A program made the position numbers and the translations under genes. Shown here in pieces: positions 44,200-64,000 of a stretch of 64,000 nucleotides of DNA. Under the pieces are notes generated by a model, which had not been told where the DNA came from, made no database searches, and saw only the letters and a list, made by a program, of their open reading frames with translations. How positions within the stretch are numbered: the first letter of the stretch is position 1; every line of letters begins with the position of its first letter. The stretch comes from Iphione sp. A-MEVVRFRX5 (Eukaryota), in the NCBI GenBank assembly GCA_976226885.1, contig OZ320313.1, positions 141,298,001 to 141,362,000 on the forward strand, in the 5' to 3' direction.

Positions 44200-44615
44200 T
44201 TAGTGTATAATGGACGTCACTTCAATACATGTATATACATGATGGTCCCCAACGAAGCCAACCGGCAGATGAAAGATCGACCCCTCGCTACAGGTCGTTA
44301 CAACTTAGGTATCATGATGTCACAAGTGCCAGGCATCCAGAGTCTCGTAAAGGATCACTGATAACATCTTTGTTGTTCATAAAGTGACTCGACACAAAAT
44401 AAAATGGCTTTACACTGTTTTAAAGGACTAGTTCCGCTTAGCACTGATACGAAGAACACAAGTTCCTGCCAGAAAAAAATTTTGTTTTCACCACTTACAG
44501 TACTTTGTAGTAAGGCTTTACTTCAGTATTTCTATCTGTACACTGTGCAATATTTTACCCTTTAAGAACATCTCTTCTAACAACACATCATCACCTTTAT
44601 CCGAACTGTGTTACA
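44200..44615 (-). repeat. 3' LTR of the minus-strand Gypsy, with PPT at 44616-44627
   Basis: On the minus strand ggaggggaggga is followed by TGTAACACAGTTCGG. 44294-44610 is a diverged direct repeat of 51421-51674. The distal boundary is uncertain. Confidence 0.8.
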
Positions 44616-47600
44616 TCCCTCCCCTCCTTGGAAGTAATGCGCAGCATTACGTAGTTTATTTCCCACCCTCGAACCAAAATTTCATCTAAATTCAGCCCTT
44701 GATGCTGAAGGCATCTCAAGTCAATATGCCTGAGACACCATGCTTCAATAGGGGACAGGACCACATCTGTTACTACCAGGTGGTAGGCATTATAGGTGTA
44801 ACTGGAATACACTGGACTGGATTCATTGGGGGGAGGATATCACAGGATTCAACCACTGTGATGAGTTTTACAAAACATTCCTTGTCTCTTTCATCAATTA
44901 ACAGTGACCTCATTAGCACCTTTGAGACAATGAAGTCACTTGTGACATTAGTTCCCCATTTTCCCGTTACAGGCAATATACAGCACCTATTAGAGTTAGC
45001 TTTTTCCAGAACTTACTTTTTTGCAGGTGTGGAAGATACTCACACATTTTGGATATTCAAGAGGAAGAGTAGAGGAGTGGCATGGCCCGGGTCTGTCACT
45101 ACCATACTAACCAAGAATGACCTGCACCATGCCAAAGAGATGCTCGCTTGGTGGGACAAGCCTAGCCCAGGGGCAACCATGAGGACATTTTTTGGAACGA
45201 ATATTTACAACTGAAAGTTATCCGTTATAGTGACCCAAGGGTTCTAGGACTGCTGCGTCTTTCTTACAGAAAATTCTTCAATAAAACCCCTTACTGTCTA
45301 AAAACATTTCTGCAAGGCAAGAGAGCAAACTAGGCAGTACCATGTTCTTGAAAAACAGGAGACAATAACGACGTACCAAGAACATTTACCACTTATGGTT
45401 AATTTGTCAATTACATCTTAATAACCACAGCCTGAGCAAGCAACAACTTGGTAATACAGGTCATTACAATGATACATGTAGCGCTACAATACACGGTTAA
45501 CAACATCATTACTTATGAGTAAACACTTATTAAAGGTCAAGCAAGAGTATCTGTCTCTCCTGCCAAGTCTGTAATTTTACCGTTCCTCTTTAACGAAACA
45601 CAGAAAAGGGTTGTTCATTCTGCATATACAGCTCTGTGGGGGCTTTAGCATTGGTAGGGTGATAAATCTCAAATCCCTTGGGACCTTGCTTAAATTTCAC
45701 CGTGCTACCATTAACACATTGAATTCACATGGAAAGAGCAACCAGGATGGTGACTACCCAATTACCTTGGTCAAGATATGTGCCTAGGGATCATCTCATC
45801 TAGGAAAAATCCTCACAACCCTCTTGGCCTGTTTATCTTTCATGGGGAACATCATTGGCCAACCAAAATAAATGTCAATAAAGGTCAGGAGATACATGTA
45901 CCCAGCTTCGGATTCCTGATATGGTCCACAGGTATTAACTTCTACCTTCTGAAATGGGAAGACAATGCTCTCCATTTCCCAAAGAGGTCTCAACTGCCTC
46001 CTCAAGTTCCGAGTATTACATGGAACACACACAGAAATATGAGCAACAACATCTTGAACAAATTCTCCCTGTAATATAGTGCTCATACATGGTCATACAT
46101 TTTATCTATCCCATATGTCCCATGCCATCATGTTCCTAATCCAGCACTACACTACGAAACACCTTAGGTACTATTAACCACAGGCAAACTTCCGGATGCT
46201 AGCTAACATAGTACCATAACTACTCCACCTTCCTGTGTTTGAAGCATGTCCGCTCCCTGCGAGTTGGTATTGGGAGTATCCAAATTCATGTTATTCCTGC
46301 TCAATATGGATGAGGAGTCCTCATGGGGCCCTGACTCCGAATCTGTAGAAGCCTGGTCAAGTGGAGCCACCCCACCCTCTTTTCTTGGGGCAATCAATTG
46401 TGGGTCCATTTGACCTGACCAGAGTCTACTCAAAGTATCGGCCTGGACATTCTCCTGACCAGGGATGTATTAAATCTCACAGTCATATTTAGAAAGTTGC
46501 ATAGCCCATTGCTGGATCTTAGCAGGAACAAGAACTTTTATGGCTTATGGTCTGTATGGATTATGAACTTATGCCCATACAAGTAAGCCTGAAACTTCCG
46601 GATCGCAGAGACAATGGCAAAGCCTTCCTTTTCAATCATGGGCCACCTCTGTTGAGTCTTGCTCAGGTGGTGCGACATGTACTGGATAGGTCTTTCGCTG
46701 TTGTCAAATTCTTATGCTAACATGGCTGCAATGCAGGTGTCACTTCTATCAGTATGAAGGATGAATACTCAATCAAACATAGGAAAGGCCAGCAACAGAG
46801 GATTAGTTTTTTCTTCAGTTGCTTCAAAAGCGAGCTGACATTCTTCAGTCCACTGGAACTTGGCACGTTTTCTAGTCATAGCAATCAATGGCACTACAAT
46901 CTGTGCAAAGGGGGGAACGTACCTACGGTAGAAACTAGCCATCCCAATAAAGGAATGAACACCCTTTATGTCCGGAGGCAGTTCCAACTGCAAAATGCTG
47001 GTAACTTTTCCTTCATCCAGCTGCACCCCGTCAGGTGTAATGACATGCCCAAGGTGCTGCGGACAGAAGTGACATTTGCTTCCCTGCAGCTTTAACCCAG
47101 CATTGCGTAGTCGATCAAACACCATTTGCAGATGGCATAAGTGTGTGGACTGGTCCAGAGACCACACCAATATGTCATTGATAGAATTAACGTACCATTA
47201 ATTCCATCTAGGCCTTGAGCCATCAGTTCGCAAAACACACTGGGGGCGTTACACAAGCCAAATGGCATTACATTGAATTTGATCAACCCAGCATGACAAG
47301 CAAATACCGTTTTGGGTCAAGAGGCTTCTTCCATGGGAACCTGATGATACCTGCTTCGGAGGTCAAGGTTAAAAAAACAAGTGCTACCTCCTAAATTCAC
47401 GAGGATATCATCAATATGGGGCAAAGGCCAATTAAACTTTGTCATCACATCATTGACTTGTCTAATCTACACAAAACCGCATGGAGCCATCTCTTTTCTC
47501 CATGAGCACAATCAGTGAAGCCCAGGGACTGCGACTAGTATGAATTATTCCCGTATACAACATCTCTTGGATCTTTTCTTCCACTACTGTCTGACACGAT

Positions 47601-48961
47601 AGCAGAGTATAATAGGGTTTCTGTGCTATAGGCTCATGATCTCCCATATGTATCTCCATAGTGACAAGATGAGTGCATCCGAACTCCATGTCAGAGGCTC
47701 AAAACAAATCCTTGTTATTCACAAGTAACTCCTCCAGAGTTGTCACCAACTCATTAATGACCTGTGGAGTGTGTTACATCATGGTCTGGATAAGTCCCAG
47801 CTCCACGCAAGCCTCATCCGTCACGGGTTCGGTTTCAGCGATGACATTCCCTGTCCTAATCATCAAGGTATGGGTGGTGGTACTCACTATTAGAACAGGC
47901 ATATTTGCTGTTTCATGCAGGTCAAACAATTCGCTACTATGACTCCAGGTTCCTCTGACAGGTAACTCTGTTGTGAGCCCTTCACTATCATAGCAGTGGG
48001 TAATCCTTCAATGGAAGTCCCCTTTTGCCTACATCATCCGAACATCAATACAGCAGTGTCTGGGGGCAGCACCATGTCAGCCTCTGCTCGCACAATGGCT
48101 TCAATTTGTTGTTTGCTGATCATAGGAATAAGCAATGACCCACACCTCACAAAACCTTGTTCCAGCAACAACTGCATCGGGTGTTGACTCAACCAGTCCC
48201 ACCCAAGGATGAACGTATGCTGAGAGTGAGTAATTACTTGGAACTCAGCAGCAAACGGCGCGTCCGTAAGATGGTAAACTTAATTGGGGTAGTGCCTTCT
48301 TGTTTGATCTCACCACCATCCATGCCCCGTAAGGCAGTGGTTGATGGGCCTACAGTAGAGGCGAAGGCTTCCTCAAACTATGGTCTACATCCTCCCTAAC
48401 TACCGATACATCAGCTCCAGTATCCAATAGAGCACGGTACCCATAAGGACCTATCTTGGTCTTAATTGTTGGCCTATCTGACATCCTGTACTTCACTATG
48501 AATCAATTACTTAGAGGGAGTTTTATTTGGACACTGAGACTAGAAGTGTCTGTACTTCTTACAACCATAACATTGGACCTTCTTAACCACTTTGAGAAGC
48601 AACATTTGGGGGCCACCCTCCTTTTGTCCCCTTAACTTAGCTTTCATGGCATAGCAATTCTTTGCCACTTGCTTCGGCTTCCCGCAACAATAACAATTTC
48701 TCTAAAACCGTTTCTGCCTGCATCAATGGCATCCACTTCCATAGGGGTGTGCTCATCTCAGCCTCTCAAAGTGATATGCAGGAGGACTTCCGTTTCTCCT
48801 CCCACACATCTAACAGTGGCAACGAAATCTTCTGGACCCTCCCGTATGACTTTTCTAGCTACCAAAACCTCAACCAATTGATGTTGCATGGCAGCTTGTC
48901 ACATATCCTCCTCAGTGAAAGTATCACTTGCAAGGTCTAACAACCGTTCAGAATACATGTA

Positions 48962-49596
48962 CAGTAGAACCCCTCAACAACGGACACTGAAGGGACTGTA
49001 GCCAAAGCGTCCGTTGTCGGGGGTGTCTGCTGTGTCTGGGCTACCCCTTCTATCTCGGTAGGGGATCAGCGGCAGAAGGTAGGTTATCAATGGCAGAGAG
49101 TAGGATGGCAACAACAGAAGGTAGGACAGCAGTGGCAGAAGGTAGGATGGCAGCCGCAGAAGGTAGGACAGAAGGGGCAGAAGGTAGGATGGCAGTGGTT
49201 CCTCCAAGGTGACAAGACAAGGTCGCAACTCTCCCAGGTGTGGGGACTCATCAAAGGCATGGACCGTCAGGACAAGGTCGCGCTTCTCTCAGGTGTGAGA
49301 GTCCTTCAAAGAAGGGTGTCAGGACAAGGTCATGCCTCTCTCGGGTGTGAGAGTCCTTCAAAGAAGGTGTCAAGAAGGTGACTGACGGGTGGGTGTCTGC
49401 TGTAGACCCTGTAAAATCAGGGTTAGGGACTGTCTAGGGACTGTCCGAAGGTGGGGTGTCCGCTCTCTCTGAGTGTCCGCTGTGTCCAGGCGCCATTAGA
49501 CATGATAAAGAGGGTTTCTGTTTGGGACTGGCACCAGGGCATCCGCTGTAGGAGGCATCCGCTGTGTCCGGGCGTCCGTAGAGAGGGGTTCCCCTG
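48962..49596. mobile_element. Tc1/mariner-Tigger-like MITE inserted in gag
   Basis: TA-cagtagaacccctc ... gaggggttcccctg-TA (TA at 48960-48961 and 49597-49598). Internal 21-bp and roughly 52-bp tandem repeats. Removing it restores the gag frame KQKSNETVYMYSERLLDLA. Confidence 0.85.
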
Positions 49597-51226
49597 TACA
49601 CAGTTTCATTTGATTTCTGCTTACACTTCCTGAGGAGTCCCTTTGCATGTACCAGATCAATCACCTCATCAAACCTTTGGGACAGTTGGTTGCAAGACCT
49701 TTCCCATTTGGGAGGCGTTAAGACTGGTTCCACTACCTGTAGGTTGCCTCCCCACAGTCACTCGTCCTGTTCCTGGATATATCAAATGATGTAATCTGCC
49801 ACTGGGCCTTTGGCTGTCAGCTGTGCTAATCACTGCTTGAAACAAATAGTGGCTTCTGGTTGAGTTGTGAACCATACCCTGGCATGTTCAATTGCTTTCA
49901 GCCAAGGCTTAAAATTCTTTGGTTTCCTGTCAAAACTAGAAACTGACTGTTTAGCTCCTTGGATGCTTAGATTTTCAGTAACTTTTGCAAGGTGTCAATC
50001 AATACCCCAAAAACACTGTTGTAAATTGGGATTTGGTTCGTGGGGATCAACGTTCATGTGGCGTGGAGGACCTGGATCTTGTGGCTCTGCCATAAGGAAG
50101 GATTACAAAGGTAAAGCCTGCCATTCAGCTTCCTTCCATACCGTGATAAGCTCGGAGGTCCCACAGCCTGGTATTAATTTACAAGCTAGGTAGCCCATCA
50201 CACCTATTAGGATGGCGAGTACCAATATCATGATAACAAGGTACCCCACAGATCGGGAGTCCAATTCTAAAGTGGTCATATCTATCTTTAATTACAAGGT
50301 GACCTCCAGAATCTTACCCTCAAGATCCTGACTTAAGTTTGACTTGGCAGAAAAGTGATCAGAACCCTTGCTCACCTTTCATTCCCATGGCTGCACTGTA
50401 GGGTCTCCTTGTTCTGCTGATGTAGTCCCTTCTACCCAGGAGATGCAGTTCTGTGGGTGGCAACAGGTTACGACCCCAACCAATGCTGGCATACCAAAGG
50501 AAGTGCACAACCTCCTGGTACACCTGTCCCAACCACAGCACCATCTGGCTCCTCTGCATCTGATATTCGACATCTTCCACCAGCCTCTCCTCGCGTCATC
50601 GGTTCAGGATGTGATGTAGGTCTTGTGGCTCAGTGTCGTGGAGGTGTTTTGGGCTTGTCGCTGTCCTGCCCACCTCAGCAGTGGGTAACTGCAGCTGTCC
50701 AGACCCCTCGTGTCCCTCTGTAGTGATTTATACTGTTAACCGGCCCATGCAAAAGTCAGGGGACATGCCGTTAATGCCCTCCGGTGCCGTCTGCCTCTTG
50801 GCTGCCCTTGGTAGCTGGAGATGCACCACCCTTTGCTTAGCTTGCTTGAAGGGGGTGAGTCTCGTCAGGTCAAGCGCCTTTTCTTCAGAGGCAAAGGTGC
50901 CCTTCGGTGGTTCCCACTCGCGAACACATCTAAGAGGATCGAGGCAGTCCTTAGTGACCAACAGCAATCTTGCTGGCCATCCCAAGACACCAAAAGATCA
51001 CTCCACGTCTCATTTGGGACTCGCCGAAATGAGTGTGAAGCGGCTGGCATCCTTCAATGTGGCACGGCGTGTAAGTGGTATGATGGTTTGTGGCTTCTGC
51101 AATCTCCCTAATGAAGGTTGGCGTGTCCGTGTCCAAATCAGGTTTGCTACATCCTAAGTAATACTGTCTTAGCTGATCCTGGTCATGGCATGAAAAGAGA
51201 TGGGTGTAGCACAAAGCCAACACCAC

Positions 51227-51674
51227 AGTGTCAGGTTTGATATCAGACTTTTATTCTTCTTCAGCAACTAGTACAGTGAGCCAGAAATTCAGCAGCAGCA
51301 GGAAGGCGAGTCTGACAAGAGTGTTGGACTGCTCATGTTATATACTCCACCTGCTAACAGTGACAACGCAGTTTACTTGTGCCGGACGTAGTCTTTCATT
51401 ACATGTCAACTACACATCAGGTTGTTACGACTTAGGTATCATGACATTAAAAGCGCCCGGCATCCAGGGTCTCATAAAGGATCACTGATCCTTCATTGTT
51501 CATAAAGTGACTCAACACAAAATAGAATCTGCCAGATGAAAAATTTTGTTTTTGCCACTTACAGTACTTCGTAATGAGGCTTTACTTCAGTATTTCTGTC
51601 TGTACACTATACAATATTTTACCCTTTAAGAACATCTCTTCTAACAACACATCATCACCTTTATCCGAACTGTG
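51227..51674 (-). repeat. 5' LTR of the minus-strand Gypsy
   Basis: Homologous to 44294-44610. On the minus strand it ends AATAAAAGTCTGATATCAAACCTGACA and is followed by a degenerate TGGTG PBS. The outer TGTAA is missing. Confidence 0.75.
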
Positions 51675-51699
51675 AGAGTGAAGTGAAACACTGTCTGCC

Positions 51700-54600
51700 A
51701 GAGTTACCCCCTACTGAGGTGGGTAGGACGGTGAATCACGCAGACCAACCCCAAGACATGGAGCTGAATGACCTGTGCCATGTACTGAACTAACGAAGGG
51801 GCAAGGAGCGATTGACTGACAATGTACAACACTGGACCAAGCGAATTCTGACGGTGCTTCAAACTGGACAGGTGTCACAGGAGGTCACGCACTTTCTATG
51901 GTATGCCAGTGTTGGCCGTTGCCGGAACTTTGTGCCACCTGAAGAGCTACATCAGCTGGCAAGACATGACTAGGCTGCAAGACAACAACTCCATCACTCC
52001 ACAACCATGAAAATAAAAGGTGAGCGATAGTTTTGATCACTTTTCTGCCAAGAAATAGTCTGGGATTTGTGGAGGGTAGGATCCTAGAGAGACCTTCAAA
52101 AATTAAAAGAAAATGAATGCCTTGAAATAAGATTCTCAATCCTTAGGATACCTTGTTTTGATGATTATTGTATTTGTGGTCCTGGTAGGAATCTGGGCTA
52201 CCTGGCATGCAAGTTAATACCAGGATGGAGAATGGATGAGAGTCACTGTTCGGAAGGAGCCTGAACCCCATCCCTTAGCTTAAGAAGCTCAGACCTGCCA
52301 GACCCCATGAAAAAATCCAAAATTACAACAGTGTTTCCAGAGTATTGACAGGCATCTTGCCAAGGTCACTGAAAATTTAAGTATTCAGCTAAGCAGGTTG
52401 TACCTATTTTTGATGGGAAGCCAAAGAATTTTAAGCCATGGATGAAGGCCATTGAACATGCTACCCTAGGATTTGTCACTCAACCTCAGGCAGCCATATG
52501 CTTTAAGCAGCATTTAATACAACTAACTGCTGAGGGGCCGGTGGCTGATTATATCATTCAGTACATTAAGGAAGAAGACAACCGATTAAAGGGAGATGAC
52601 CCCCAGATCGTAGAACCTGTGTTGACACCACCTGAATGGGAAAGGTTCTGTAATCAACTCCCTCCAAGGTTTGGGGAAGTAATTGATCCCGTTTATGCTA
52701 AAGGACTATTAAGAAAGTGTAGGCTGTGTATGTGTATTCTGAGCGGTTGTTAGATCTAGCCTATGATGCATTTACCGAGGTAGAAATGCATCAGACTGTC
52801 ATGCAACAGAAGCTAGTTAAATTCTTTACCAATGGGTTGAAAAATGCCCAGGTTGCCCAAAAAATCATTCACGAAGCCCCGCAGGATTATGTTGCTGCAG
52901 TGAGGTGTGTGGGAGGAGAATCTGAGGTCCTCAGGCACATTACACTGAGGGGTCAAGATGAGCATACTCCTATGGAGGTTGATGCCATTGAGGCAAGTAA
53001 AAAGCAATTTAAAGGGAATTGTTACTGCTGTGGGACGCCGGTCCATGCAGCCAAAAACTGTTATGCTGCTAAGGCCAAGTTGAGGGATCAGAAGGAGGGT
53101 GGTCCTCAGACTCCACTTCCCAGGGTAGTGAAGAAGGTTCAGTGTTATGGTTGCAAGAAATACAAACACTTCCAGTCTCAGTGTCCTAGTAATACCACAA
53201 CCGATTAGGAGATCCTTGTAGAAGTGCAGGATGATGGACAGGCCAACTATTAAAATTAAGATCAGACCTTATGGGTACCACGCCCTGTTGGATACAGGGG
53301 CAGATGTGTCTGTAGTTAGGGAGGATGTGTATCGAAGCCTGAGACAAAGAGAGCTTGCCACTGCTGTGGGTCCTTTAGCCACAGCCTTACAAGGTGTGGA
53401 TAGGGGTGAATTGAAACAGGAAGGGACCACACTTATTGAATTTACCATGTTGGGAAAACCATTTTCCACCGAATTCCATGTAATAGCATGACCAAGGCCA
53501 ACTTTTATCCTTGGATGGAATTGGCTAGGCCAACATCCCATGCAGCTGTTACAGAGCAGGGATTTGTGAAGTGTGTGTCATTACTAATTCCCATGATTGG
53601 AGAACAGCAAATTGAAACAAAAGTATGTGCGGAGGCTGATACAGTTTTGCCATCCAGTACCAGTGTGCTGATGTTTGGGAAGTGAAGAAACAAGGGAGAT
53701 GCTAGTGAAGGATCCCCCATTGCTATGATTGTTTAGGGTACCTGCCAAAATTATCTGGCTGAGGAACCTGGAGTCATAGTGGCAAACTGTTTGACCCAAA
53801 CCACCATGATGATTGTGCCCGCCCTGATAGTCAACACCACCACACGGACCCTAATGATTAGGACAGGGAATGTTATGGCCAAAATGCTGCTGTTTGCATG
53901 GAGCTAGGGTTAATCCAGACCACCCTGCAACCCACTCCAAGGGCCATCACGGAGTCAGTAATGACTCTAGAGGAGTTGCTGGCTAATAACGAGGACCTCT
54001 TTGCGGCCTTGGATGTGGAGTTGGGATGCACTCACTTGGCTACCATGGATATTGACATGAACTTATAGCACAAAAGCCTTATCATACTCCCCTGTCATGA
54101 CAAGCAGTAGTGGAGGAAAAGATCCAGGGAACATTGGATGCTCGGATAATCTGCACTAGCCGAAGCCCATGGGCCTCACCTATCATGTTGGTGGAGAAGA
54201 AGGACAGCTCCATGAGGTTTTGTGCAGATTATAGAAGGGTTAATGATATCACCATCAAGTTTAATTGGCCCTTGCCTCACATCAATGATATCCTAGCTAA
54301 ATTGGGAGGTAGCACATGTTTTTTGACACTTGACCTTAGGAACAGGTATCATCAGGTTCCCATGGAAGATACCTCTTGGCCCAAGACAGCTTTCGTATGC
54401 CACACCTGTTTTGTGAATTTAATGTGATGCCATATGGATTGTGTAATGCACCCAGTGTATTTTGTGAACTGATGGCCAAAGTCTTGGACAGAATTAATGG
54501 CACATTCACAACGGCTTATACTGATGACATATTGGTGTGGTTGCCTGATCAGTCCACACACTTGCGTCATCTGCAAATGATGTTTGATTGGTTACGTAAT

Positions 54601-56380
54601 GCAGGACTCAAACTGAAAGCAGAGTAAGTGTGACTTCTTCTGTCCACAATTGCAGTACCTGGGGCATGTCATTACACCCCATGGTGTGTAGGCGGACCAA
54701 GTTAAGGTTGCTAACATTGCGGAGCTGGAGCTGCCTACCAATGTTAAGGGAGTCTGTTCTTTTATTGGGATGGCTAGTTTCTATCGGAGGTATGTTCTGG
54801 CTTTCACAAAGAAGCAGAGCCGTTGATTGCCATGACAAGGAAGCATGCTGAGTCCCATTAGACCTCTGAGTGCCAAGTAGTTTTTGAGACACTGAAAGAC
54901 AAACTTACTAATCCTCCATTATTGGCCTTTCCAATGTTTGCCTGTGTTTTCATCCTGTACACTGATGTGAGTGATGCCTGCATCTGAGCCATGTCGGCAC
55001 AAGAATTTGATAATGGCGAGAAGCCTATTCAGTATATGTCACACCACCTTAGTGAAACTCAACAGAGGTGGCCCATAATCAAGAAGGAAGGCTTTGCCAT
55101 TGTCTCTGCAAATCTGAAAGTTTATAGTCCGTACTGATCACAAGCCATTAAAGTTCCTGTATAAGTCTAAACAGAAGAATGCTAAGGTCCTACAATGGGC
55201 TATGCAACTTTCTGAAATACCATCCTGCTGTGAACGATAATGTTGAGCAGATGCACCAAGTTTGGAATGATGTCATGACTAAGTTGGCTTAGGGAGATAT
55301 GGCATACTTGGAAAGGCCCATACCCTCTGCTTTGTTGGTTTTGCATATGAGTATGAACGAGTCAACAAGGTATACCTCATGTATGCAAGGGACCCAGTAT
55401 TGCTCCAACCACAGTTGAGGTATTATGGGGAGGAGCATCATAAGCTTGCTTTACAGTGACATCATCAGGCAATGACGGTGGTTCATAGGAATGTCACTAA
55501 GGCACGACGGTGCATGAAGAAGTACCATGACCAACGAGCCACCAATGTGTCCTTTGAAATAGGGGATCCAGTGTATGTACAGAACCCCCTGCATTGTCAT
55601 AAGCTTAATTTGAGGTAGTAAACTTAATCATGAAAAAGCTTACTCCTGTCAACTTTGTGATAAAAGATCAGGTGACGGGGAAGTTGATGAAGGTCCATAG
55701 TGATCGTTTGCACTTGACTAACCTTGACTGGCAGTTGCCGAAATGTGATGGTGGGAGACTGCACCATTGTGTTGCATTAGCCGGAGATGGGATGCCTTCC
55801 AATTTAGATGGAAGTTTGTCCAGGCCATTGAATGGTTCCAATGGGTTATATTCCCCAGATGAGATTTCCCTTGCCTAGTTATTTGAAAGAGAATGGCAGC
55901 ATGAAATTTGTGATCTGCAGAATGACCCAATCTTCAACAGGAAGAGGGACAGGTCGAGGTGGAGGGCCCAGTTGCTGGAAACATTGATCCACCAGGTCAG
56001 GTGCATCAACCTGATGAGATAGTACCTGGTCCCGAGGCCGAGGACCATGGTGAAGGGTTAGGAGTGTTGTGTGACCAACTGGTCACCCATACAGTAAGGT
56101 AACATGAGGCTGGAGAGGAGGCTATTGCTCCAGTCAAAACGCTGGTTATCCCACTAGTGGGAGGGGAGCAACCTTGGTGGAGACAAGGTGATCTGCCAGA
56201 GGACCCAGTGCTGTGGGCAGACAGGACACATCCCCCCACTTATGCCAACAGAAGGAATCAGGGACCCAAAGGGAACCACGTTATCATACTGGGCAGTTAT
56301 GAAAAGGGAACAAACCTTGGCAAGTGAATTGCCACCTATGCAGAAACGGGCCTGTCAAGAATAGACACAGGGGCCATGGT
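51700..56380 (+). mobile_element. Decayed Ty3/Gypsy element related to the minus-strand copy, interrupted by the young element
   Basis: ORF0 relic 51758-52036. Gag 52442-53208 (PMEVD, CYCC...H..KNC). Protease ALLDTGADVS at 53231. RT SRSPWAS/YTDDILV 54110-54900. RNase H about 54950-55200. Integrase core deleted, C-terminal VHSDRL at about 55700. Confidence 0.9.
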
Positions 56381-56382
56381 AT

Positions 56383-56569
56383 TGTTGCGGGCTCCACTCA
56401 GCGGAGCCCGCTGTTGGCGGAAGTTGAGAATTTGGGGCTCCGCCCGGAGTAGCATTCTGTATATAAGTCGGGCCGGGCGGAGCTTCGTTGTCATTAGTGT
56501 CCTGTCTCTTAAGGAATAAACTTCATCAACTGTTATCTTGGAGTCATGTCCCTTCGATCGGGGCAAACA
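56383..56569 (+). repeat. 5' LTR (about 190 bp; 5' boundary 56383 or 56412)
   Basis: TGTTG start, TATATAAG 56460-56467, Inr TCATT 56491-56495, AATAAA 56515-56520, end GGGCAAACA at 56569. A 9-bp hairpin gcgggctcc/ggagcccgc lies at 56387-56411. Confidence 0.8.
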
Positions 56570-57808
56570 ATTGGTGACAGCGGTGGGATCCCTGCCCTAG
56601 GGGCTGAGGCGGAGGAGGAGGCGGAGGTAGTCAAGCTCCGGGCGGAGTCGGCAGAGCCGGCGGAGCCCGGCGAGTCAGCGGAGGTCGCCGAAGAGCTGCC
56701 GGAGCCCGCCTGGCTCCGCCCGGAACCCGCCACTGACTGGGACGCACAGTCCATGGAGGGGAGCCAGCCTCTGGGTAGCGGGGATGCCCAAACAAGAGAT
56801 GAGGTGGGGCATGGGACTGACGAGGAAGAAAGAGAGCACGGAGCCCCTACCTCATCCGCCCCACACACATTCAATGAGGACACTGATGACCACCCTCCTC
56901 CGGAGGAAGACGAAGGAGAGGGGGAGCCGACCGACCAGGCAGCTGAACCGCTTTGGACTAGCTTCGTCCGGGAGCTGAGTTCTGCCCTTCGACCGGAAGG
57001 AGGAAGTAAGAAGAGCCTGGTGAAACCTGACACTTACGATGGGAGTACGCCCTTGCGGGACTTCCTACAACATTTTGAGCTGGTGGCCCTGGCAAACCAT
57101 TGGGGGGCCGGAGAGAAAGCCATCCAGTTAGGCATCACCTTGAGGAAGTTGGCTCGGGCGGTCCTACGGAGTTCGGGGATCGATGTGGAGAAGCCCCGAG
57201 CTTACCAGGAACTGGTGGCCGCCCTCATGGAGAGGTTCCAGTCCAAGCACCAGACAGATGCATACATCCAGCAACTGAAGGGGTGTCGGCAGGGGAAGGC
57301 CGAGGCCCTGGCGGACCTTGCAGACGAAATTGAGCAATTGGTACAGCTGGCCTACCCCGAGGCGAAGGGGGCCTGGAAGGACCGGATGTGTCGCGAATAC
57401 TACGTCGGGGCCCTCAGCAACGAGAAGATTCGGAAGTGGGTGACCCAGGCCCGAGTGGCAACCTTCCGTGAGGCGTTGTCAGCATCGCAAGTAGCGGAAT
57501 CTTACTATCAGCACAAGTCCGAAAGGGTGGGACCCAAGCGTGTGCATAAGCTGGAAGTGGCCACAGAGGAAGCTCCAACCAACAAGCCCACCCCCGGGAC
57601 CGAGGCTACAGCGGCGGGCTTCGAGCGGCTGGAGCTCCTGCTCCAACAGCTACTGGCAGGCCAACAAGGGGTGGAGAAGGAGAATCGCCGGCCAAATAAC
57701 AAGAAATGCTTCAATTGCGGGGAACTCGGGCATTTCAAGCGCAACTGTCCCCAGCCCTTGAAGGAGCAACCGTCGGGAAACAGGGCGGCGGCCGCCCCTC
57801 GCCAGTAG
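56546..57808 (+). CDS. gag: Gag (420 aa): acidic N-terminus, capsid-like domain, CCHC zinc knuckle
   Basis: KPDTYDGSTPLRDFLQHFELVALANHW, LMERF, LKGCRQG...LADLADEIEQL..LAYP and CFNCGELGHFKRNC. Confidence 0.93.
   Translation: MSLRSGQTIGDSGGIPALGAEAEEEAEVVKLRAESAEPAEPGESAEVAEELPEPAWLRPEPATDWDAQSMEGSQPLGSGDAQTRDEVGHGTDEEEREHGAPTSSAPHTFNEDTDDHPPPEEDEGEGEPTDQAAEPLWTSFVRELSSALRPEGGSKKSLVKPDTYDGSTPLRDFLQHFELVALANHWGAGEKAIQLGITLRKLARAVLRSSGIDVEKPRAYQELVAALMERFQSKHQTDAYIQQLKGCRQGKAEALADLADEIEQLVQLAYPEAKGAWKDRMCREYYVGALSNEKIRKWVTQARVATFREALSASQVAESYYQHKSERVGPKRVHKLEVATEEAPTNKPTPGTEATAAGFERLELLLQQLLAGQQGVEKENRRPNNKKCFNCGELGHFKRNCPQPLKEQPSGNRAAAAPRQ
56572..56589 (+). other. Primer binding site TGGTGACAGCGGTGGGAT (probably tRNA-Leu)
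   Basis: 18 nt, 2 nt after the LTR end. The complement ATCCCACCGCTGTCA-CCA has a Leu-like T-stem (ATCCCAC) and an A discriminator. Confidence 0.8.
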
Positions 57809-57819
57809 AGAGGGCGGCC
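57775..57819 (+). other. -1 programmed ribosomal frameshift signal at the gag-pol junction
   Basis: G GGA AAC heptamer in the gag frame (57775-57781), an 8-nt spacer, then stem ggccgccc(ctc) / (gag-a)gggcggcc (57790-57819). Pol is in the -1 frame. Confidence 0.8.
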
Positions 57820-60111
57820 AGTCCCCAACCCCACTTGGAAGAACATCTCCGGATGATTCAGCTGTCCTGTGGGCGGGAGGTCACTCTGGAAGGGGAGAGT
57901 GGCCCCACAACGAACATCACGCTACCTAGTGAAATCGACGGTCGGATAGTCCCCTGGTTAGTGGATACCGGAGCGTCGCTGACCCTGCTGTCGGAAGAAG
58001 TCGCCGACACCCTGCCGCTCGGAGAATTGGAGCCGACAGTGGGGTGGATTTTGTGTGCAGACAGGAAACCCCTACGAGTGAAGGGGAGGACGAGGTTGAA
58101 GGCGAGTTTCCAAGGGATCGAGCTGGAAGTCAAGGCTTGGGTTGCCCAAATCGACTGCCCCGCCATCTTGGGGCTGGATACGCTTCGCAAATGGAAAGCA
58201 CAGGTGGACACGGAGGGGGCCGCACTGCGGGTGCGGGTCCCCGAGGACAACGGCGCGAGTGGATGCCGGGCAGAGTTGGCGGAAGATTGCCACCTGGATG
58301 GGAGGAGTGCAGTGCAGGCCCCCTTGCGATGGGCGGGGCTGGAGACCGACACTGGACCCGTGGTGGTGGAAGCCTCCCCCGAGTGGGAGGGTGGCTCGGG
58401 GATGCTACTGGCACGGACGGTGTGCCAGGCGGGAAGTCAGTCCGGAGTGGCGGAAATAACCAACCCTGGCCCCGTGGGGCGTCGACTGAGAAAGGGAACC
58501 ATTGTCGGCAGGGTCCAGCGGGTGGATGGGCCGGTGCAGGCCGTTCCGGAGTGCGAAGAGGTGGCGGACGAGGACGTGGAGCTAGGACCAGCGCTCAGGA
58601 CCCTGCTAGAGCGCCTACCACCCATGACTACAGATGAGCGGCAAGGGATCGAACAGATGTTGCGGTGTAACGCGCGCTGTTTCCAGGAGGACGGGCAACC
58701 ACTTGGGCACACTGACACGGTTCAGCATTGGATTGACGTACAAGGACATGCCCCTATCCGGCAGAGGGTACGCCGCCTTCCCCCGGTGAAGAAAGCGCTG
58801 GTACAGCAAGAAGTGGACCAGATGCTGCAGCAGGGGGTACTAGAGGCCTCTACCAGCCCGTGGGCGTCTCCCGTGGTTCTGGTCCGGAAGAAGGACCAAT
58901 CCTGGCGATTTTGCATCGACTACCGTGCCCTTAATCGAGTAACGAAGAAGGATGCCTACCCCCTCCCGTGGATTGATGAGACATTGGACGCGTTGGAGGG
59001 AGCACGGTTTTTCTCGGCAATCGACCTGGCCAGTGGCTATTGGCAGGTAGGGGTGAGACCAGAGGATCGAGAGAAGACGGCTGTTTGTACTCCCGGTGGG
59101 CTCTACCAGTTCCGGGTCATGCCCTTCGGACTGTGTAATGCGCCCTCCACCTTCGAGCGGTTGATGGAGGCGGTGCTCCGGGGCCTGGTTGGACAGTCTT
59201 GCCTGGTCTACCTGGACGATGTGATCGTGATAGGGAGGACGGTAGAAGAAATGACCCGCCGACTCGACGAAGTCTTCAGCCGCCTGGGGGAGGCCGGACT
59301 TAAAGTAAAGCCGCAGAAGTGTCAGCTGTTCCAGAGGGAGGTGGCCTATCTGGGGCATCGTGTGTCTGAAGAGGGGGTCCAGCCCGACCCTGAGAAGATC
59401 CGGGCCATCCAAGAGTGGCCTCCACCGCGCTGCATCACGGAATTGAGGAGCTTCATCGGACTGTGCTCCTACTACAGGAGCTTCGTGGAGGGGTTCGCAA
59501 TGCTGGCGGCCCCCCTGCACGGACTCTTGGAGAAAGGAAAGGAGTATCGCTGGGATACCGAATGTCAGCAGGCGTTTGAACAATTGAAGGGACGGTTGGT
59601 GACGGCCCCCGTCTTGGCGTACCCGCGACCGGAGGGACAGCTAGTGCTGGACACCGATGCGTCAGCAGCTGGAATCGGAGCCGTACTGTCACAAGAACAG
59701 CAAGGACAGGAGTGGGTGTTGGCCTACGCCAGTCGAAGTCTCGCGCGTCCAGAGAAGAACTACTGTGTCACCCGGAAAGAACTGTTGGCGGTAGTCTTCG
59801 GCCTGCGTAAGTTTTGCTCTTATGTTGGAGGGCGAAAGGTGGTCATCCGGACGGACCATAGTTCATTACGTTGGCTATGCAGCTTCAAGGAACCGGAGGG
59901 ACAGTTGGCCCGTTGGCTCGAGGAAGTCCACTGTTATGACTTGGAGGTGATACACCGCCCGGGAAGAAAGCACGGGAACGCCGATGGCCTTTCGCGAGTC
60001 AAGTGCCCCCAGTGTGGACGGGACCCGGAGGAGGATCTGCCGACCCTGGGGCAAGTCGGTGTTGGTGGCCCCTGCCACATTGGACTCCCTAGCCCAAGCC
60101 CAGAAGGCTGA
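57775..60111 (+). CDS. pol: Pol part 1: aspartic protease, reverse transcriptase, RNase H
   Basis: LVDTGAS; SPWASPVVLVRKKD; IDLASGYWQV; VMPFGLCNAPSTF; YLDD; DTDASAAGIGAVLSQ; RTDHSSL; NADGLSR. Confidence 0.95.
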   Translation, partial: GKQGGGRPSPVERAASPQPHLEEHLRMIQLSCGREVTLEGESGPTTNITLPSEIDGRIVPWLVDTGASLTLLSEEVADTLPLGELEPTVGWILCADRKPLRVKGRTRLKASFQGIELEVKAWVAQIDCPAILGLDTLRKWKAQVDTEGAALRVRVPEDNGASGCRAELAEDCHLDGRSAVQAPLRWAGLETDTGPVVVEASPEWEGGSGMLLARTVCQAGSQSGVAEITNPGPVGRRLRKGTIVGRVQRVDGPVQAVPECEEVADEDVELGPALRTLLERLPPMTTDERQGIEQMLRCNARCFQEDGQPLGHTDTVQHWIDVQGHAPIRQRVRRLPPVKKALVQQEVDQMLQQGVLEASTSPWASPVVLVRKKDQSWRFCIDYRALNRVTKKDAYPLPWIDETLDALEGARFFSAIDLASGYWQVGVRPEDREKTAVCTPGGLYQFRVMPFGLCNAPSTFERLMEAVLRGLVGQSCLVYLDDVIVIGRTVEEMTRRLDEVFSRLGEAGLKVKPQKCQLFQREVAYLGHRVSEEGVQPDPEKIRAIQEWPPPRCITELRSFIGLCSYYRSFVEGFAMLAAPLHGLLEKGKEYRWDTECQQAFEQLKGRLVTAPVLAYPRPEGQLVLDTDASAAGIGAVLSQEQQGQEWVLAYASRSLARPEKNYCVTRKELLAVVFGLRKFCSYVGGRKVVIRTDHSSLRWLCSFKEPEGQLARWLEEVHCYDLEVIHRPGRKHGNADGLSRVKCPQCGRDPEEDLPTLGQVGVGGPCHIGLPSPSPEG

Positions 60112-61897
60112 GCCCGAAGTGGCGGCCCTCATTCAAGCCTGGGAGGCAGAAGAGCCCCTCCCTGGACTGACTGGTAGTGATTCCCCGGAGGGGAGGTGGC
60201 TGAAGAGCGAGTCACGGCGGCTGAAGATGAAAGACAATCTGCTTTGTCGACGCTGGGAGGCAGAGGACGGAACGCTGTGCTACCAGGCTTATGTGCCCCA
60301 GCCATTGAGATACGACATCTGGTGTGAAGTCCACGCGGGAGCGCTGGGGGGGCACCTCAGCGCCGAGAAGACAGAAGGTGCCCTCCGCCGGAAATATTGC
60401 TGGCCAGGACTCCGACACGATGTGGAACGTTGGGTGAAGGCTTGCCGTGAGTGCCAGCAGCGACAGGATCCGGCTCGCCGGCACCGGGCTCCCCTTCAGC
60501 TTCGGGTGGCCCCGGCCCCGTGGGAGTTCATAGCCGTGGATGTGTGTAGACCTTTCCCCGAGACAGAGCGAGGAAACAAGTACATCATTGTGGTGGCGGA
60601 TCACTTTACGAAGTGGACGGAGGCATTCCCCACTCCGGAGGTCACGGCGGCGAAGACAGCAGACGTCCTACTCCGAGAAATCATCTGTCGATACAGCCCC
60701 CCCCGTATTCTTCATTCCGACCAGGGCCGGAACTTCAAGGCGGCAGTGATGCGGGAACTCCTACAGATGCTGGGCATTCAACGGTCACGCACCACTCCGT
60801 ACCATCCCCAGAGTGATGGAGTCGTCGAAAGGTTCAACTGCACCCTCTTAGGAATGTTGGCCAAGGTGGTCCGGGAAGATCAATCCGACTGGGACCTCCG
60901 AGTGCCCTTCATTCTGGCGGCCTACCGGGCTACCCCGCACTGTACCACCGGGTTCTGTCCGAACTGGTTAACCTTACAACGCGAGACCACGCTTCCGGTG
61001 GAGCTGATGGTGGGCAGCCCCCGAGACGAGCCACAATCAGCTTCCGACTATGCCAAGCAGATTAGGGAGCGCTACATTCAAGGCCACCAGTTAGCCCGGC
61101 GCCACTTACAGAAGTCGGCCGAGCATCAGAAGGATTGGTACGATCAGCGAGTTTGTGAGCAAGAATTCGACGTTGGCGATCAAGTTTGGGTCTACTCACC
61201 GATAAAGAAGAAGGGGCGGTCCCCCAAATTGCAAAGTCGCTGGTTAGGACCGTGGACAATTCAAGCCAGGCTCAGTGCTGTCATCTACCGCATCTCTCGA
61301 AACCAGAAGACTCGGGTTGTCCATGCAGATCTGCTAAAGAAAGCGATCTCTCCTAGTTCAGAGGAAGAAGAAAGACTCGGGCGAGTGTGTGTCATCACCC
61401 TGATGCCGGACACGGATGCGGCCCCGGGGGGTGCGGGCCAACCTACTGTGCCCCTGCCCCGCTGGTACCGCTGTAGGCCTAAGACAACTGGCCAGCCGCC
61501 TGTGGTTCCCCACAGGAGCACCAGGGACAACAGGATGCCCCCGCCCCAGCAACGCCCTCCAATACAACGGATCCCCCAAGGCTGGGTGGACTTGGTGGCC
61601 CGGGAACTCCGTCTCCTGAGTGACCGGACTTGCCAAGTCCTGCTCCAATCGCGGGAAGTCGCGGGACGGAAGAGAGGAGAGAAGCCAGGCCCCTGCCCGG
61701 GGACCTACCGTCGGGCATGGCAGAGACTGCGAGGAATCAGGAGGAGGTTGCAGAGACAGTATGGCGGACGCGCGGTGCAGCACCTGGTGGAGACCCTCTG
61801 GAGGAAGATCGGAGAAAGAAGACACCCAGCCTGGGGTCGGCGACAGTTGAAGACGTCGAGCGGAACTCGCCCTGAGCCCTGGCGGAGCACACCCTAA
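60074..61897 (+). CDS. pol: Pol part 2: integrase (HHCC, DDE, GPW) plus a C-terminal extension of about 185 aa; separated from part 1 by a +1 frameshift
   Basis: VHAGALGGHL...CRECQ; AVDV, HSDQGRNF, DGVVERFN; RWLGPWTI; VVHADLLK. Confidence 0.92.
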   Translation, partial: ATLDSLAQAQKAEPEVAALIQAWEAEEPLPGLTGSDSPEGRWLKSESRRLKMKDNLLCRRWEAEDGTLCYQAYVPQPLRYDIWCEVHAGALGGHLSAEKTEGALRRKYCWPGLRHDVERWVKACRECQQRQDPARRHRAPLQLRVAPAPWEFIAVDVCRPFPETERGNKYIIVVADHFTKWTEAFPTPEVTAAKTADVLLREIICRYSPPRILHSDQGRNFKAAVMRELLQMLGIQRSRTTPYHPQSDGVVERFNCTLLGMLAKVVREDQSDWDLRVPFILAAYRATPHCTTGFCPNWLTLQRETTLPVELMVGSPRDEPQSASDYAKQIRERYIQGHQLARRHLQKSAEHQKDWYDQRVCEQEFDVGDQVWVYSPIKKKGRSPKLQSRWLGPWTIQARLSAVIYRISRNQKTRVVHADLLKKAISPSSEEEERLGRVCVITLMPDTDAAPGGAGQPTVPLPRWYRCRPKTTGQPPVVPHRSTRDNRMPPPQQRPPIQRIPQGWVDLVARELRLLSDRTCQVLLQSREVAGRKRGEKPGPCPGTYRRAWQRLRGIRRRLQRQYGGRAVQHLVETLWRKIGERRHPAWGRRQLKTSSGTRPEPWRSTP

Positions 61898-61963
61898 CGG
61901 GGCGGAGCCCGCCCAGAGACCGAGCTCCAGGCGGAGATTACACCGCACTCTGCCGCCATCCAG

Positions 61964-62064
61964 CCAATCAGAAGCAGACGCGGGAAAGTTCGACCAATCA
62001 GCGACTGGCGGAGCTAGCCCTGAAGGGATATAAGCTGGCGGCCCTAGAAGAGGCGATTCATTCC
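61964..62064 (+). promoter_or_regulatory. Internal RNA pol II promoter for ORF3
   Basis: CCAATCA at 61964 and 61994, TATAAG at 62029, and a perfect Inr TCATTCC at 62058-62064 (A is 31 nt from the TATA). Confidence 0.75.
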
Positions 62065-62265
62065 GTCCATCGCCGCGCTCCACCCACCCAGAGATACTTC
62101 CCGAATATTTCCCGCCCGGAACTGAGTACGTCTGCGGAGGTTTCCGCGGAGTTCGACCGGAGTTCGTCCAAGTCGCTGCCGGAGCTCGCAGACAGGCGGA
62201 GCTCGCTACACAAAGTCAGCGGAGCTCGCCCGGCGGAGCTTGCCCTACCAGAACCCGAGAAGACC

Positions 62266-64000
62266 ATGACATCCAGAGGGAGAGCCCAGTACTGCCAGTA
62301 CTGTGGCTACATTTCTGACAAGCCGGGCAATTTCGATAGGCACATGTTAACCCATGGGAAGCAGGGGTTCGTCCGCCGCTGTCCGGTGCCCCGTTGCCAG
62401 GGGGCACACTTCGGCCGCCAGGATGACTTCCGGCGGCACCTGGAGAACAAACACAAGCAAGACGCCGACAACCCCCTCGTCCTGGGCCAGGACGTAGACC
62501 TGGAGTTTATAGACCTGGTCAGTGGCCAGAACGTGCCTGTCCCAGAGTGTCGCCGAGAGGAGTACCAGCGGCAGCTGAAGGTGGAGGCGTACGAGCGGGA
62601 GAAGGAAGCAGCCATGATCCGGGGGGAGGCCCCCCCACCGCGACCCAAGTTAGCTCGGAAGCCCCCCCGGGGAAGGAAGGCGTCAGCTGCCGCAGGCCGC
62701 CCTCCTCCTCCCCCCCGGGACGACAACCCAGAGGAGGACGAGGATGTGGAGGAAGAGACGGGGGCTACGGAGGGGCCCCGCCTGCGCCCCCGAGTCGGGC
62801 GTGGGGGACAGGTCTCCTCCACCGTGGCCACACCAGGGGCAGGCCACCCACCAGTCACCCCGGGTTCTTCGGCCTCAGTAGACATTCCGCTGTTCGGGCT
62901 CGACGTGTCGCCAGAGGTTCCAGAGGTGCGGATCGGCCGCAAGGTCCGCAAGTCTACGGGAAAAGCGGCTAACCGAAGTACATCAGCAGGAGAGACGCCC
63001 ACCGTTCCTGCACCGGCGAGCCCGGCCGCACCGGGGTCCGCCTCTGCCGCCTCCACGCCTGGGGCTGCTCGGGTGCGCGGCCTTCCCCCCACCAGATCCC
63101 GACCCGCCGAGTCGTCTGGGGAGTGGCCAACCCCCTCCATCCCTGGGAAGGACTTGGACTTCCAGGCCATGCGGGACGAGGCCGATCGAAGGAAGAGGAG
63201 GTACCAGCCACAGACCTCTCCCGTCACCCCGGCTAGTCTCCCCTCACCTGCGAAGAAGGTCGCCAACATTACGTCCTCCACGATGTCGCCGCTACACCGG
63301 GCGGTGATTGCCGCGGGGATTCGGGACCGCACCCCCCAGTCCACTCCCGCTTCCACTAGTTCGTCCTACAGTGAGGCGGCATGGGAGCTGGACGCGCGAC
63401 TAGGAGAAGGGTGGGAGAACGTGGAGAGGGAGAAGCGGCCCAAGGACATGGTGGTGATTGGATCGGATCCGGAGTCCGAGGACGAAACCCAGGTGGAAGA
63501 CGCTACCGCCGCCTCTGAACCATTGGCCGAGCAGCTCAGCGCGAGCCTGGGGACCCCCTGTGGGCGCATCCGCTACGCCCGGCTGGATGTGGCAGGGGGG
63601 ACCCCGGCGGATGATACAGCAGCTGAGGACGTTCCCTTGTCTGAGGGGGAAGCCGCCCTCACCCTGGCGGAGCTCGCGGGGGAAGAGCTCCGCCCGGAGC
63701 ACCCGGCGACAGAGACCGAACCTGGCGGAGCTCGCCCCGAGCCGGCGGAGCCCGCCCCTACCCAGCCGCCGGAGACGACTGTTCAGCCCTCAGAGCCTGG
63801 CCGGGCTCCGCCGACGGGGCACCAACCAGAGGCACCTGAGCAGCCGCTGACGACGCCGGAGCCCGATACCAGGGCTGAGCCTACCCCCCCCCGGCACTCC
63901 CGGGACGGCGCACTGAAGCAGGGGCAGGGGAGACCCTGCCCAAGGAGATCCCCCCGGCACTCCCGGGACGGCGAGGGGAGGAGCCGGCACCTACCCTGCC
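62266..64000 (+). CDS. ORF3: tandem C2H2 zinc-finger protein with a long Pro/acidic disordered tail (at least 578 aa, 3' incomplete)
   Basis: ACCATG start with no stop to the window end in my codon-by-codon translation. ZF1 is CQYCGYISDKPGNFDRHMLTH and ZF2 is CPVPRCQGAHFGRQDDFRRHLENKH. Basic patches RKPPRGRK and RRKRR. Confidence 0.88.
   Translation, partial: MTSRGRAQYCQYCGYISDKPGNFDRHMLTHGKQGFVRRCPVPRCQGAHFGRQDDFRRHLENKHKQDADNPLVLGQDVDLEFIDLVSGQNVPVPECRREEYQRQLKVEAYEREKEAAMIRGEAPPPRPKLARKPPRGRKASAAAGRPPPPPRDDNPEEDEDVEEETGATEGPRLRPRVGRGGQVSSTVATPGAGHPPVTPGSSASVDIPLFGLDVSPEVPEVRIGRKVRKSTGKAANRSTSAGETPTVPAPASPAAPGSASAASTPGAARVRGLPPTRSRPAESSGEWPTPSIPGKDLDFQAMRDEADRRKRRYQPQTSPVTPASLPSPAKKVANITSSTMSPLHRAVIAAGIRDRTPQSTPASTSSSYSEAAWELDARLGEGWENVEREKRPKDMVVIGSDPESEDETQVEDATAASEPLAEQLSASLGTPCGRIRYARLDVAGGTPADDTAAEDVPLSEGEAALTLAELAGEELRPEHPATETEPGGARPEPAEPAPTQPPETTVQPSEPGRAPPTGHQPEAPEQPLTTPEPDTRAEPTPPRHSRDGALKQGQGRPCPRRSPRHSRDGEGRSRHLPC

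Follow-up and report, generated by a model that had tools for sequence, protein, structure and literature searches.

What question does a promoter-like sequence raise when it lies between the pol gene and the 3′ open reading frame of a retrotransposon? The window analysed here (64,000 nucleotides of contig OZ320313.1 from Iphione sp., to which all coordinates refer) contains such a sequence upstream of a frame designated ORF3. A reading made from the sequence alone (the sequence-only reading) had proposed that ORF3, in contrast to the usual splicing of 3′ ORFs such as env, is expressed from its own promoter by a dedicated subgenomic mRNA, independently of gag-pol. We asked whether the site is a promoter, what lies downstream of it, and what its product would do.

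The Element and Its Families

The site lies inside a young Ty3/gypsy LTR retrotransposon. The 5′ LTR comprises 187 bp (56383..56569, + strand) and the 3′ LTR is just beyond the window end (L021 1998-2184); the pair differs at 4/187 bases, and the target duplication of this copy is the 4-bp GTAT. The Ty3/gypsy assignment is indicated by direct LTRs of the form TG...CA, a primer-binding site after the 5′ LTR, a G-rich tract before the 3′ LTR, and gag followed by pol with the domain order PR-RT-RH-INT in a Pfam scan; the best RT-RH relatives outside this genome are gypsy-type Pols, at up to 66% identity. The gag gene (56546..57808, +; 420 aa) encodes a capsid-like region and a CCHC knuckle, with its ATG within the LTR, and pol (57700..61897, +) encodes protease, RT, RNase H and integrase, followed by a basic helical segment. 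The LTR core promoter (56460..56495, +) comprises TATATAAG, a GCGGAG word at 56477 and a TCATT initiator with predicted +1 at 56493; AATAAA is at 56515, and no CCAAT box was found in the 5′ LTR of the window.

The element is present in the genome in multiple copies (40 scored DNA matches at 92-100%; 150 scored protein matches). Three families were compared, each represented by one copy with an unbroken frame: family 1, to which the window copy belongs (L071), family 2 (L076-L077) and family 3 (L092). The zinc-finger regions of these three copies are 52-59% identical to that of the window.

Core Promoter Motifs at the Internal Site

The motifs named by the sequence-only reading can be read directly from the window. 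TATAAG, 23 nt and TCATT occur both at the LTR (56462, 56491) and at the internal site (62029, 62058); CCAATCA occurs twice at a distance of 30 bp, at 61964 (within AGCCAATCAG) and at 61994 (within GACCAATCAG); and the internal initiator, described as lying about 205 nt before the ORF3 ATG, has its predicted +1 at 62060, 206 nt from the first ATG after the TATA box (62266). The TATAAG-N23-TCATT pattern has two matches in the window vs 0.03 expected (0/100 shuffles reach two) and the CCAATCAG pair has one vs 0.01 expected (1/100 shuffles), both patterns having been picked after the sequence had been seen. The LTR TATA box in full is TATATAAG at 56460, 33 nt upstream of the initiator A; the internal GATATAAG at 62027 is in the same register, so that the two geometries are equal for the full TATA boxes as well.

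The layout is that of a TATA/CCAAT core promoter for RNA polymerase II, with CCAAT at TATA-65 and -35 and a C-purine step at +30/+31 in 25/25 diverged copies. On the plus strand, CCAAT box 1 (AGCCAATCAG, 61962..61971) keeps its CCAAT in 21/25 of these copies and CCAAT box 2 (GACCAATCAG, 61992..62001) in 24/25. Between them is a GC-rich word ending in GCGGGAAA (61978..61987), the last two A of which are present in 25/25 copies; its reverse strand resembles an E2F site. Downstream are the TATA box GATATAAG (62027..62034; TATAAR in 23/25) and an initiator-like TCATTCC (62058..62064; predicted +1 62060; C-purine in 25/25, YYRNWYY in 19/25). From 62060 to 62265 (+) there is neither an ATG nor a stop codon, and this stretch is the predicted 5′ UTR of an internal mRNA as well as a Pol coding linker.

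Two possible origins of the site were rejected. It is not an LTR remnant or duplicate: matches to the LTR are only 12-32 nt long and surround GCGGAG words, and there is no LTR match at that place. Nor does it appear to be a copied host histone promoter, given that the four histone genes read have no double CCAAT at 30 bp. The histone genes of the host are nevertheless built from the same parts, H3 carrying TATATAAG and the H2A/H2B pair ACCAATCAG. Between H2A and H2B in that histone cluster (L123) lie repeated TTTGGACCGTCCCC words and a single CCAAT box, and the H2A leader is apparently long. For cell-cycle genes, excerpts of a published study describe spaced CCAAT boxes in arrays to which NF-Y binds (PMC1802594).

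Conservation of the Probable Promoter Block

The fixed-spacing CCAAT-CCAAT-TATA layout has 662 matches in the genome, and the reversed control has none; 20 of the first 100 listed matches were retrieved as sequence. Across the three families, the 48 codons of the block show a three-way amino-acid identity of only 44%, and synonymous third positions are identical at 11/20 sites in the block vs 114/477 in PR-RT-RH-INT (Fisher p=0.0035). The block ranks first among 48-codon windows of Pol for third-position invariance (0.46, vs mean 0.21, sd 0.07 and maximum 0.42 in 450 other windows); between families 1 and 2 alone, 17/21 synonymous third positions are identical, vs 40-51%. Invariance by codon position is 0.52/0.62/0.46 (first/second/third). 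Since the first and second positions are more invariant than the third, the encoded helix is kept as protein, and because this constraint also acts, part of the conservation of the block needs no promoter.

Both Asn codons of the block are AAT in all three families, vs 0/12 conserved Asn elsewhere, and TAT is used in all three, vs 2/27 conserved Tyr elsewhere. Together, the rarer codons AAT, AAT, TAT, GAA and RTT, shared by the three families, spell CCAAT, CCAAT, TATAA, the E2F-like word and the initiator.

The same pattern is seen among copies. Based on similarity of the zinc-finger protein, 32 stretches were picked, of which 25 aligned without gaps at ≥90 of 180 bases; these 25 were retained by similarity to a motif-bearing reference, and their median identity over the block is 56%. 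Seven were left out: four lack the region (L082, L088, L089 and L134), and three (L090, L131 and L133) keep TATAA and are gapped upstream. The encoded residues differ among the 25 copies while the CCAAT, TATAAR and C-purine letters stay; exact TCATT is found at the internal site in only 4/25. Third positions within the motifs are kept in 22-25 of 25 copies vs a mean of 65% elsewhere (p=0.002), although the p values for conservation overstate independence, because the copies are related. Judged from these alignments, the block is conserved both as DNA and as protein, and it is probably a functioning internal RNA polymerase II promoter, from which we infer a subgenomic mRNA.

ORF3 Is the C-Terminal Third of Pol

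In the copies representing families 1, 2 and 3, single open frames of 2,413, 2,633 and 2,410 codons, respectively, run from the protease through the integrase, the promoter block and the zinc fingers to near the 3′ LTR. Among the best 80 family-1 protein matches, 12 frames have at least 2,400 codons, although a stop interrupts the match in one of these, and 30 have at least 1,900; among the 29 family-1 loci with the motif, 12 are open back to the integrase and the others are broken at scattered places. The frame of the window copy shifts near 60,057 and near 61,880, and its ORF3 frame meets a stop codon some 45 nt beyond the end of the window; ORF3 seems to be a separate gene in this copy because of the broken frame and the early stop. 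In unbroken copies, “ORF3” forms the final third of Pol in one continuous reading frame, which also contains the probable promoter. The part of the sequence-only reading that made ORF3 a gene independent of gag-pol thus falls away.

The stretch from the integrase end to the ATG is stop-free in 0/400 shuffles for each family, and the promoter and leader alone in 10, 22 and 5 of 400 for the three families; the TATA-to-ATG distances of 237, 252 and 465 (families 1, 2 and 3) are all multiples of three. Read-through from the integrase into the fingers therefore looks to be under selection. One family-3 copy (G000:C2:83935985-83940874) has two zinc-finger regions 4.5 kb apart in one frame of 3,444 codons, an in-frame internal duplication.

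In the window the tail (62266..64000, +) encodes two C2H2 fingers, a long helix and a long disordered part rich in Pro and Glu. In unbroken copies it comprises 794-1,122 aa, counted from the ATG equivalent to 62266, and ends in a 110-aa C-terminal domain that is folded in a structure model. Its identity as an env-like 3′ ORF was rejected based on the two C2H2 fingers in Pfam and the absence of a hydrophobic segment from the tails of all three families (highest 19-residue hydropathy 0.76-0.97). Env-bearing elements of the errantivirus or Tor type have a signal peptide and a transmembrane anchor, and a 3′ ORF separate from pol; neither feature is found here.

The C-terminal domain (L071 8319-8717, Pol residues 2281-2413) is conserved and beta-rich, with a pLDDT of about 90 in the model, and matches no Pfam family. 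Its best VIA-align hit, a phage tail-completion protein (Z 7.5, rmsd 4.2 over 99 residues), is within the range of common arrangements; the best viral Foldseek match has E 0.003, and Atlas matches have a low recognition score.

No relatives outside this genome were found at E<=0.001 for ORF3 residues 1-130 or Pol residues 1250-1700, the tail locus was not found in metagenome contigs, and none of 120 outside Pol proteins matches the tail; the 34 outside Pols with a recognisable integrase end have no tail over 250 aa. One 197-aa protein from a short ENA contig (P0001, E 1.6e-54) matches the basic helix and the promoter-coded peptide, and the other 56 matches are generic C2H2 proteins. Because outside relatives are lacking, the conservation tests are confined to one genome.

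The Zinc Fingers and Their Predicted Target

Both fingers are classical C2H2 fingers, with a Pfam zf-H2C2_5 match above cut-off and eight ligands invariant in 7 rows. The finger model has a pLDDT of 79 and helices at 20-30 and 52-63; sequence matches in the PDB include CTCF and BCL11A, and Foldseek matches are weak (best E 0.09). Finger 1 (62293..62355, +) has the recognition helix (-1 to +6) KPGNFDR, or RPGNLRR in family 3, with N at +3, R at +6 and R, K or H at -1, and its predicted triplet is GA(G/T). Finger 2 (62380..62454, +) has the helix RQDDFRR in the window and RRDD(F/L)RR in the three families, with the predicted triplet GCG. Excerpts of published module sets give RSDDLVR for GCG and RSDNLVR for GAG (PMC7317221, PMC5260015). 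At positions -1, 2, 3 and 6 the helices of the element match these modules: RRDDFRR of finger 2 resembles RSDDLVR, and N3/R6 of finger 1 resembles RSDNLVR. In the antiparallel reading, the pair is predicted to bind GCGGA(G/T). A caveat to this prediction is that the interfinger linker is one residue longer than usual.

The predicted GCGGA(G/T) matches the word enriched at both promoter regions. There are nine GCGGAG words in a cluster that extends from the LTR into the initial 150 nt of internal sequence (56401..56719, both strands; three in the LTR and six in 5′ gag) and nine around the internal promoter and leader (61882..62238, +), in all three codon phases. In all three families GCGGAG ranks first or second by frequency among the hexamers of the LTR and internal promoter taken together. 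The LTRs contain 16-31 such words per kb, the 400 bases that open the internal region 12-22 and the surroundings of the internal promoter 21-30, vs 0.3-0.8 in PR-INT and 0.09 in the host flank. For each region, 0/100 shuffles reach the observed count, and for the internal region so do 0/300 synonymous recodings; around the internal promoter the words occupy all codon phases and both strands. Downstream of that promoter the tail shows mild enrichment in families 1 and 3. The words at TATA-81 and -21 are shared by position, exactly in 10/25 and 14/25 copies, and in 20/25 and 21/25 if CpG decay is allowed. In the LTRs of all three families, U3 contains two to five GCGGAG words upstream of the TATA box, and one lies between the TATA box and the initiator. 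Double sites of the CTCCGCCCGGAG type are candidate dimer targets of the two-finger domain.

A Proposed Two-Promoter Circuit

The LTRs of the three families have no NF-Y-type CCAAT box (L071 has one ATTGG in poor context). The simplest wiring is therefore that host factors fire the internal promoter and that the protein made from it targets this promoter and the LTR alike. Basal activity of the internal promoter would come from host NF-Y, possibly assisted by E2F, the LTR being without a CCAAT box; internal transcripts would start near 62060 and end at the AATAAA of the 3′ LTR; and ribosomes would initiate at the ATG at 62266 to produce a zinc-finger protein of 800-1,100 aa without the Gag-Pol frameshift. 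This protein would bind the GCGGAG clusters, feed back on its own promoter and activate the LTR, in the manner of foamy virus Tas. The same sequence would also be produced, at a low level, as the tail of Gag-Pol, and it is proposed that the tail frame stays open because of this second form. The whole circuit, in which the internal promoter drives the element’s own two-finger protein, which acts through GCGGAG at both promoters and switches the LTR on, is the account that we favour, if narrowly.

The best-surviving alternative accepts the promoter and differs in the outcome: the zinc-finger protein would repress the LTR or limit copy number, as p22-Gag of Ty1i does, or host GC-box factors would read the GCGGAG words. 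All of the promoter evidence fits this equally well, and the many GCGGAG words downstream of both TATA boxes, together with the one between the LTR TATA box and initiator, are placed where a bound protein could block initiation. There is also a precedent, in that excerpts on Ty1i describe an internal promoter within an ORF, the in-frame product of which restricts the element (PMC5834202). However, the LTR U3 has little besides its two to five GCGGAG words upstream of the TATA box, and the finger helices match the enriched word. GGCGGAG, for its part, also resembles a GC box and could be recognised by host Sp/KLF factors. A further point against this alternative is that the tail is acidic and proline-rich, a composition common in activation regions, and overall we consider it unlikely.

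Predicted Translation Start and Splicing

The first ATG after the TATA box is in frame and directly ahead of finger 1 in all three families (+237, +252 and +465), and at +237 in 29/29 family-1 copies with the motif. The chance of an ATG-free leader of such length is about 0.19 in family 1, 0.23 in family 2 and 0.02 in family 3; as evidence the leader is weak in families 1 and 2 and stronger in family 3. There is no conserved splice acceptor adjoining the ATG: a CAG 15 nt upstream is found in only 2/29 family-1 copies. C-rich pyrimidine-AG (CAG) sites, which are possible acceptors, occur at -68/-74/-74 in the three families and at about -385 in two. Across the LTR and the 1.5 kb that follow it, families 1 and 2 have no strict donor-like word, and family 3 has two. 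Of the original proposal, then, the internal promoter is probable and gains from the synonymous-site conservation in three families, the ATG-free leader to an in-frame ATG and the lack of a conserved acceptor by that ATG.

An account in which the zinc-finger protein is made from a spliced LTR transcript, or in which the block is an enhancer of the LTR and not a start site, appears improbable. Splicing is the usual route for 3′ ORFs in the excerpted texts on such elements (PMC5408684, PMC4402516), and the C-rich CAG sites at -68/-74/-74 would be available to it. Those sites, however, contain just two or three T within 17 nt, a CTCCGCC site falls at the same place, the CAG nearest the ATG is rarely present, and the strict donors are confined to family 3; for an enhancer, a TATA box and initiator at a fixed 31-nt spacing would not be needed.

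Least probable is that there is no promoter and that the tail acts only within Gag-Pol or after protease cleavage from it, for example by tethering integrase to the element’s DNA, with the motifs as by-products of a conserved N-Q, Y-K, I-H helix: the frame open from integrase to fingers in three families (0/400 shuffles each), the leader length differences in multiples of three, and the free third positions retained in Ala, Glu and His codons of the block are all in keeping with it, whereas protein constraint leaves synonymous sites free and yet the five rarer codons recur in all three families, CpG decay cannot yield the AAT of the second box or the TAT, neighbouring residues vary (Q/E, I/V, H/R/Q) as the promoter-like letters remain constant, and a Met codon directly precedes finger 1 in every family.

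Comparison with Known Systems

In the usual view, a simple LTR retrotransposon depends on host factors acting at a single LTR promoter, and a self-encoded transactivator together with a second promoter is a mark of complex retroviruses. If the favoured circuit of internal promoter and self-activation is correct, an invertebrate gypsy clade with hundreds of copies would have this complex-retrovirus logic by way of a captured zinc-finger pair; moreover, as the finger code gives the target, the circuit could be put directly to the test using short reporter fragments and a domain of 70 residues.

One close likeness is to foamy viruses, for which excerpts describe a TATA and cap-site promoter conserved inside a coding gene, in their case env, with the DNA-binding regulator Tas downstream; Tas occupies its own promoter before it binds the LTR (PMC3798896). 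An internal TATA box and cap site conserved in coding sequence upstream of a regulator are found here at the level of sequence. The differences are that the present element is a Ty3/gypsy element without env, that its promoter is in pol, that its putative C2H2 regulator is in frame with Pol, and that the circuit is predicted. As Spumaretrovirinae are defined by env and a separate tas ORF, both lacking here, the element may work alike and is not a member.

Among invertebrate LTR retroelements, Tor3b and Tor4b of Oikopleura dioica also have an internal promoter, Penv, upstream of the 3′ gene (PMC4402516, in excerpt); it was mapped by 5′-RACE, its start in Tor3b is within pol, and it replaces splicing for the 3′ gene (PMC4402516). 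Penv drives a transmembrane Env, whereas the product here carries zinc fingers, is free of hydrophobic segments and extends the Pol frame without a break. In yeast Ty1, the Ty1i promoter is likewise inside an ORF and yields a truncated polyprotein form, p22-Gag, with a regulatory role (PMC5834202, in excerpt). It is TATA-less and belongs to a Ty1/copia element, where it lies in GAG, and p22 prevents particles from assembling (PMC5834202); in contrast, the putative promoter described here has TATA and CCAAT boxes, is in pol, and has a predicted DNA-binding product. The LTR retrotransposons of bdelloids resemble the present element in having a non-env 3′ coding region, but there ORF3 is an open reading frame of its own, of the esterase, exonuclease, coiled-coil or transmembrane kind, and is typically spliced, and that text does not contain “zinc finger,” “C2H2” or “internal promoter” (PMC5408684).

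A literature search that lay mostly outside subscription journals and Repbase reports gave, among the papers listed, no account of an internal promoter in pol driving a zinc-finger tail in gypsy elements. What appears to be new is a probable promoter written inside the Pol frame, with a CCAAT architecture. We offer more tentatively the broader view that these copies represent a clade of animal Ty3/gypsy elements with an NF-Y/TATA promoter inside the Pol frame, in which one sequence would serve as promoter, 5′ UTR and protein and would free the last third of Pol to act as a zinc-finger transcription factor specific for a word in the element’s own LTR; this would be an independent, foamy-like two-stage switch that the host cell cycle would gate, and its reader would in addition exist as an integrase fusion. 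For annotation, very long Pol tails, usually regarded as junk extensions, may conceal a second transcription unit, and one broken copy can mislead by presenting a false separate ORF3.

Other Features of the Element and Its Surroundings

In all three families gag begins within the 5′ LTR and its frame passes through the primer-binding site (window 56546-56589; L076, L092), with the encoded sequence MSLRSG.TIG.S.GI. The primer-binding site itself (56572..56589, +), which we take to be tRNA-Leu-like, is thus within the gag frame. A GGGAAAC slippery word at 57775 is followed by a hairpin-like stretch, GGCGGCCGCCCC...GGGCGGCC, that holds the gag stop; the arrangement is similar in three families (57775-57830) and is likely to be a -1 frameshift signal.

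Further along pol, a 234-codon open frame (57933-58634) overlaps the post-protease region in most family-1 copies, with 179 codons in family 2 and no frame as long in family 3. Third-position invariance is high (0.42) at Pol residues 240-300, which could reflect an overlapping signal. An Arg/Trp-rich helical segment between the integrase and the promoter (window ~61,560-61,850; Pol residues 1341-1435) is conserved at the protein level, and its synonymous sites are saturated.

The copies are flanked by 4-bp target duplications, almost all of which fit NTAT or ATAN (GTAT, ATAT, ATAC, ATAG, CTAT, ATAA), which points to an integration preference. In L040 (G000:C1:39022600-39032599) and L016, the 3′ LTR is preceded by the same eight bases as flank the 5′ LTR, with no purine tract there, and this copy has a short duplication in the promoter region. 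The window element is nested in an older, decayed LTR element (51400-56382; L021 2185-3500), the downstream part of which looks env-like by eye, and at about 44,300-50,400 there is a related element in inverted orientation.
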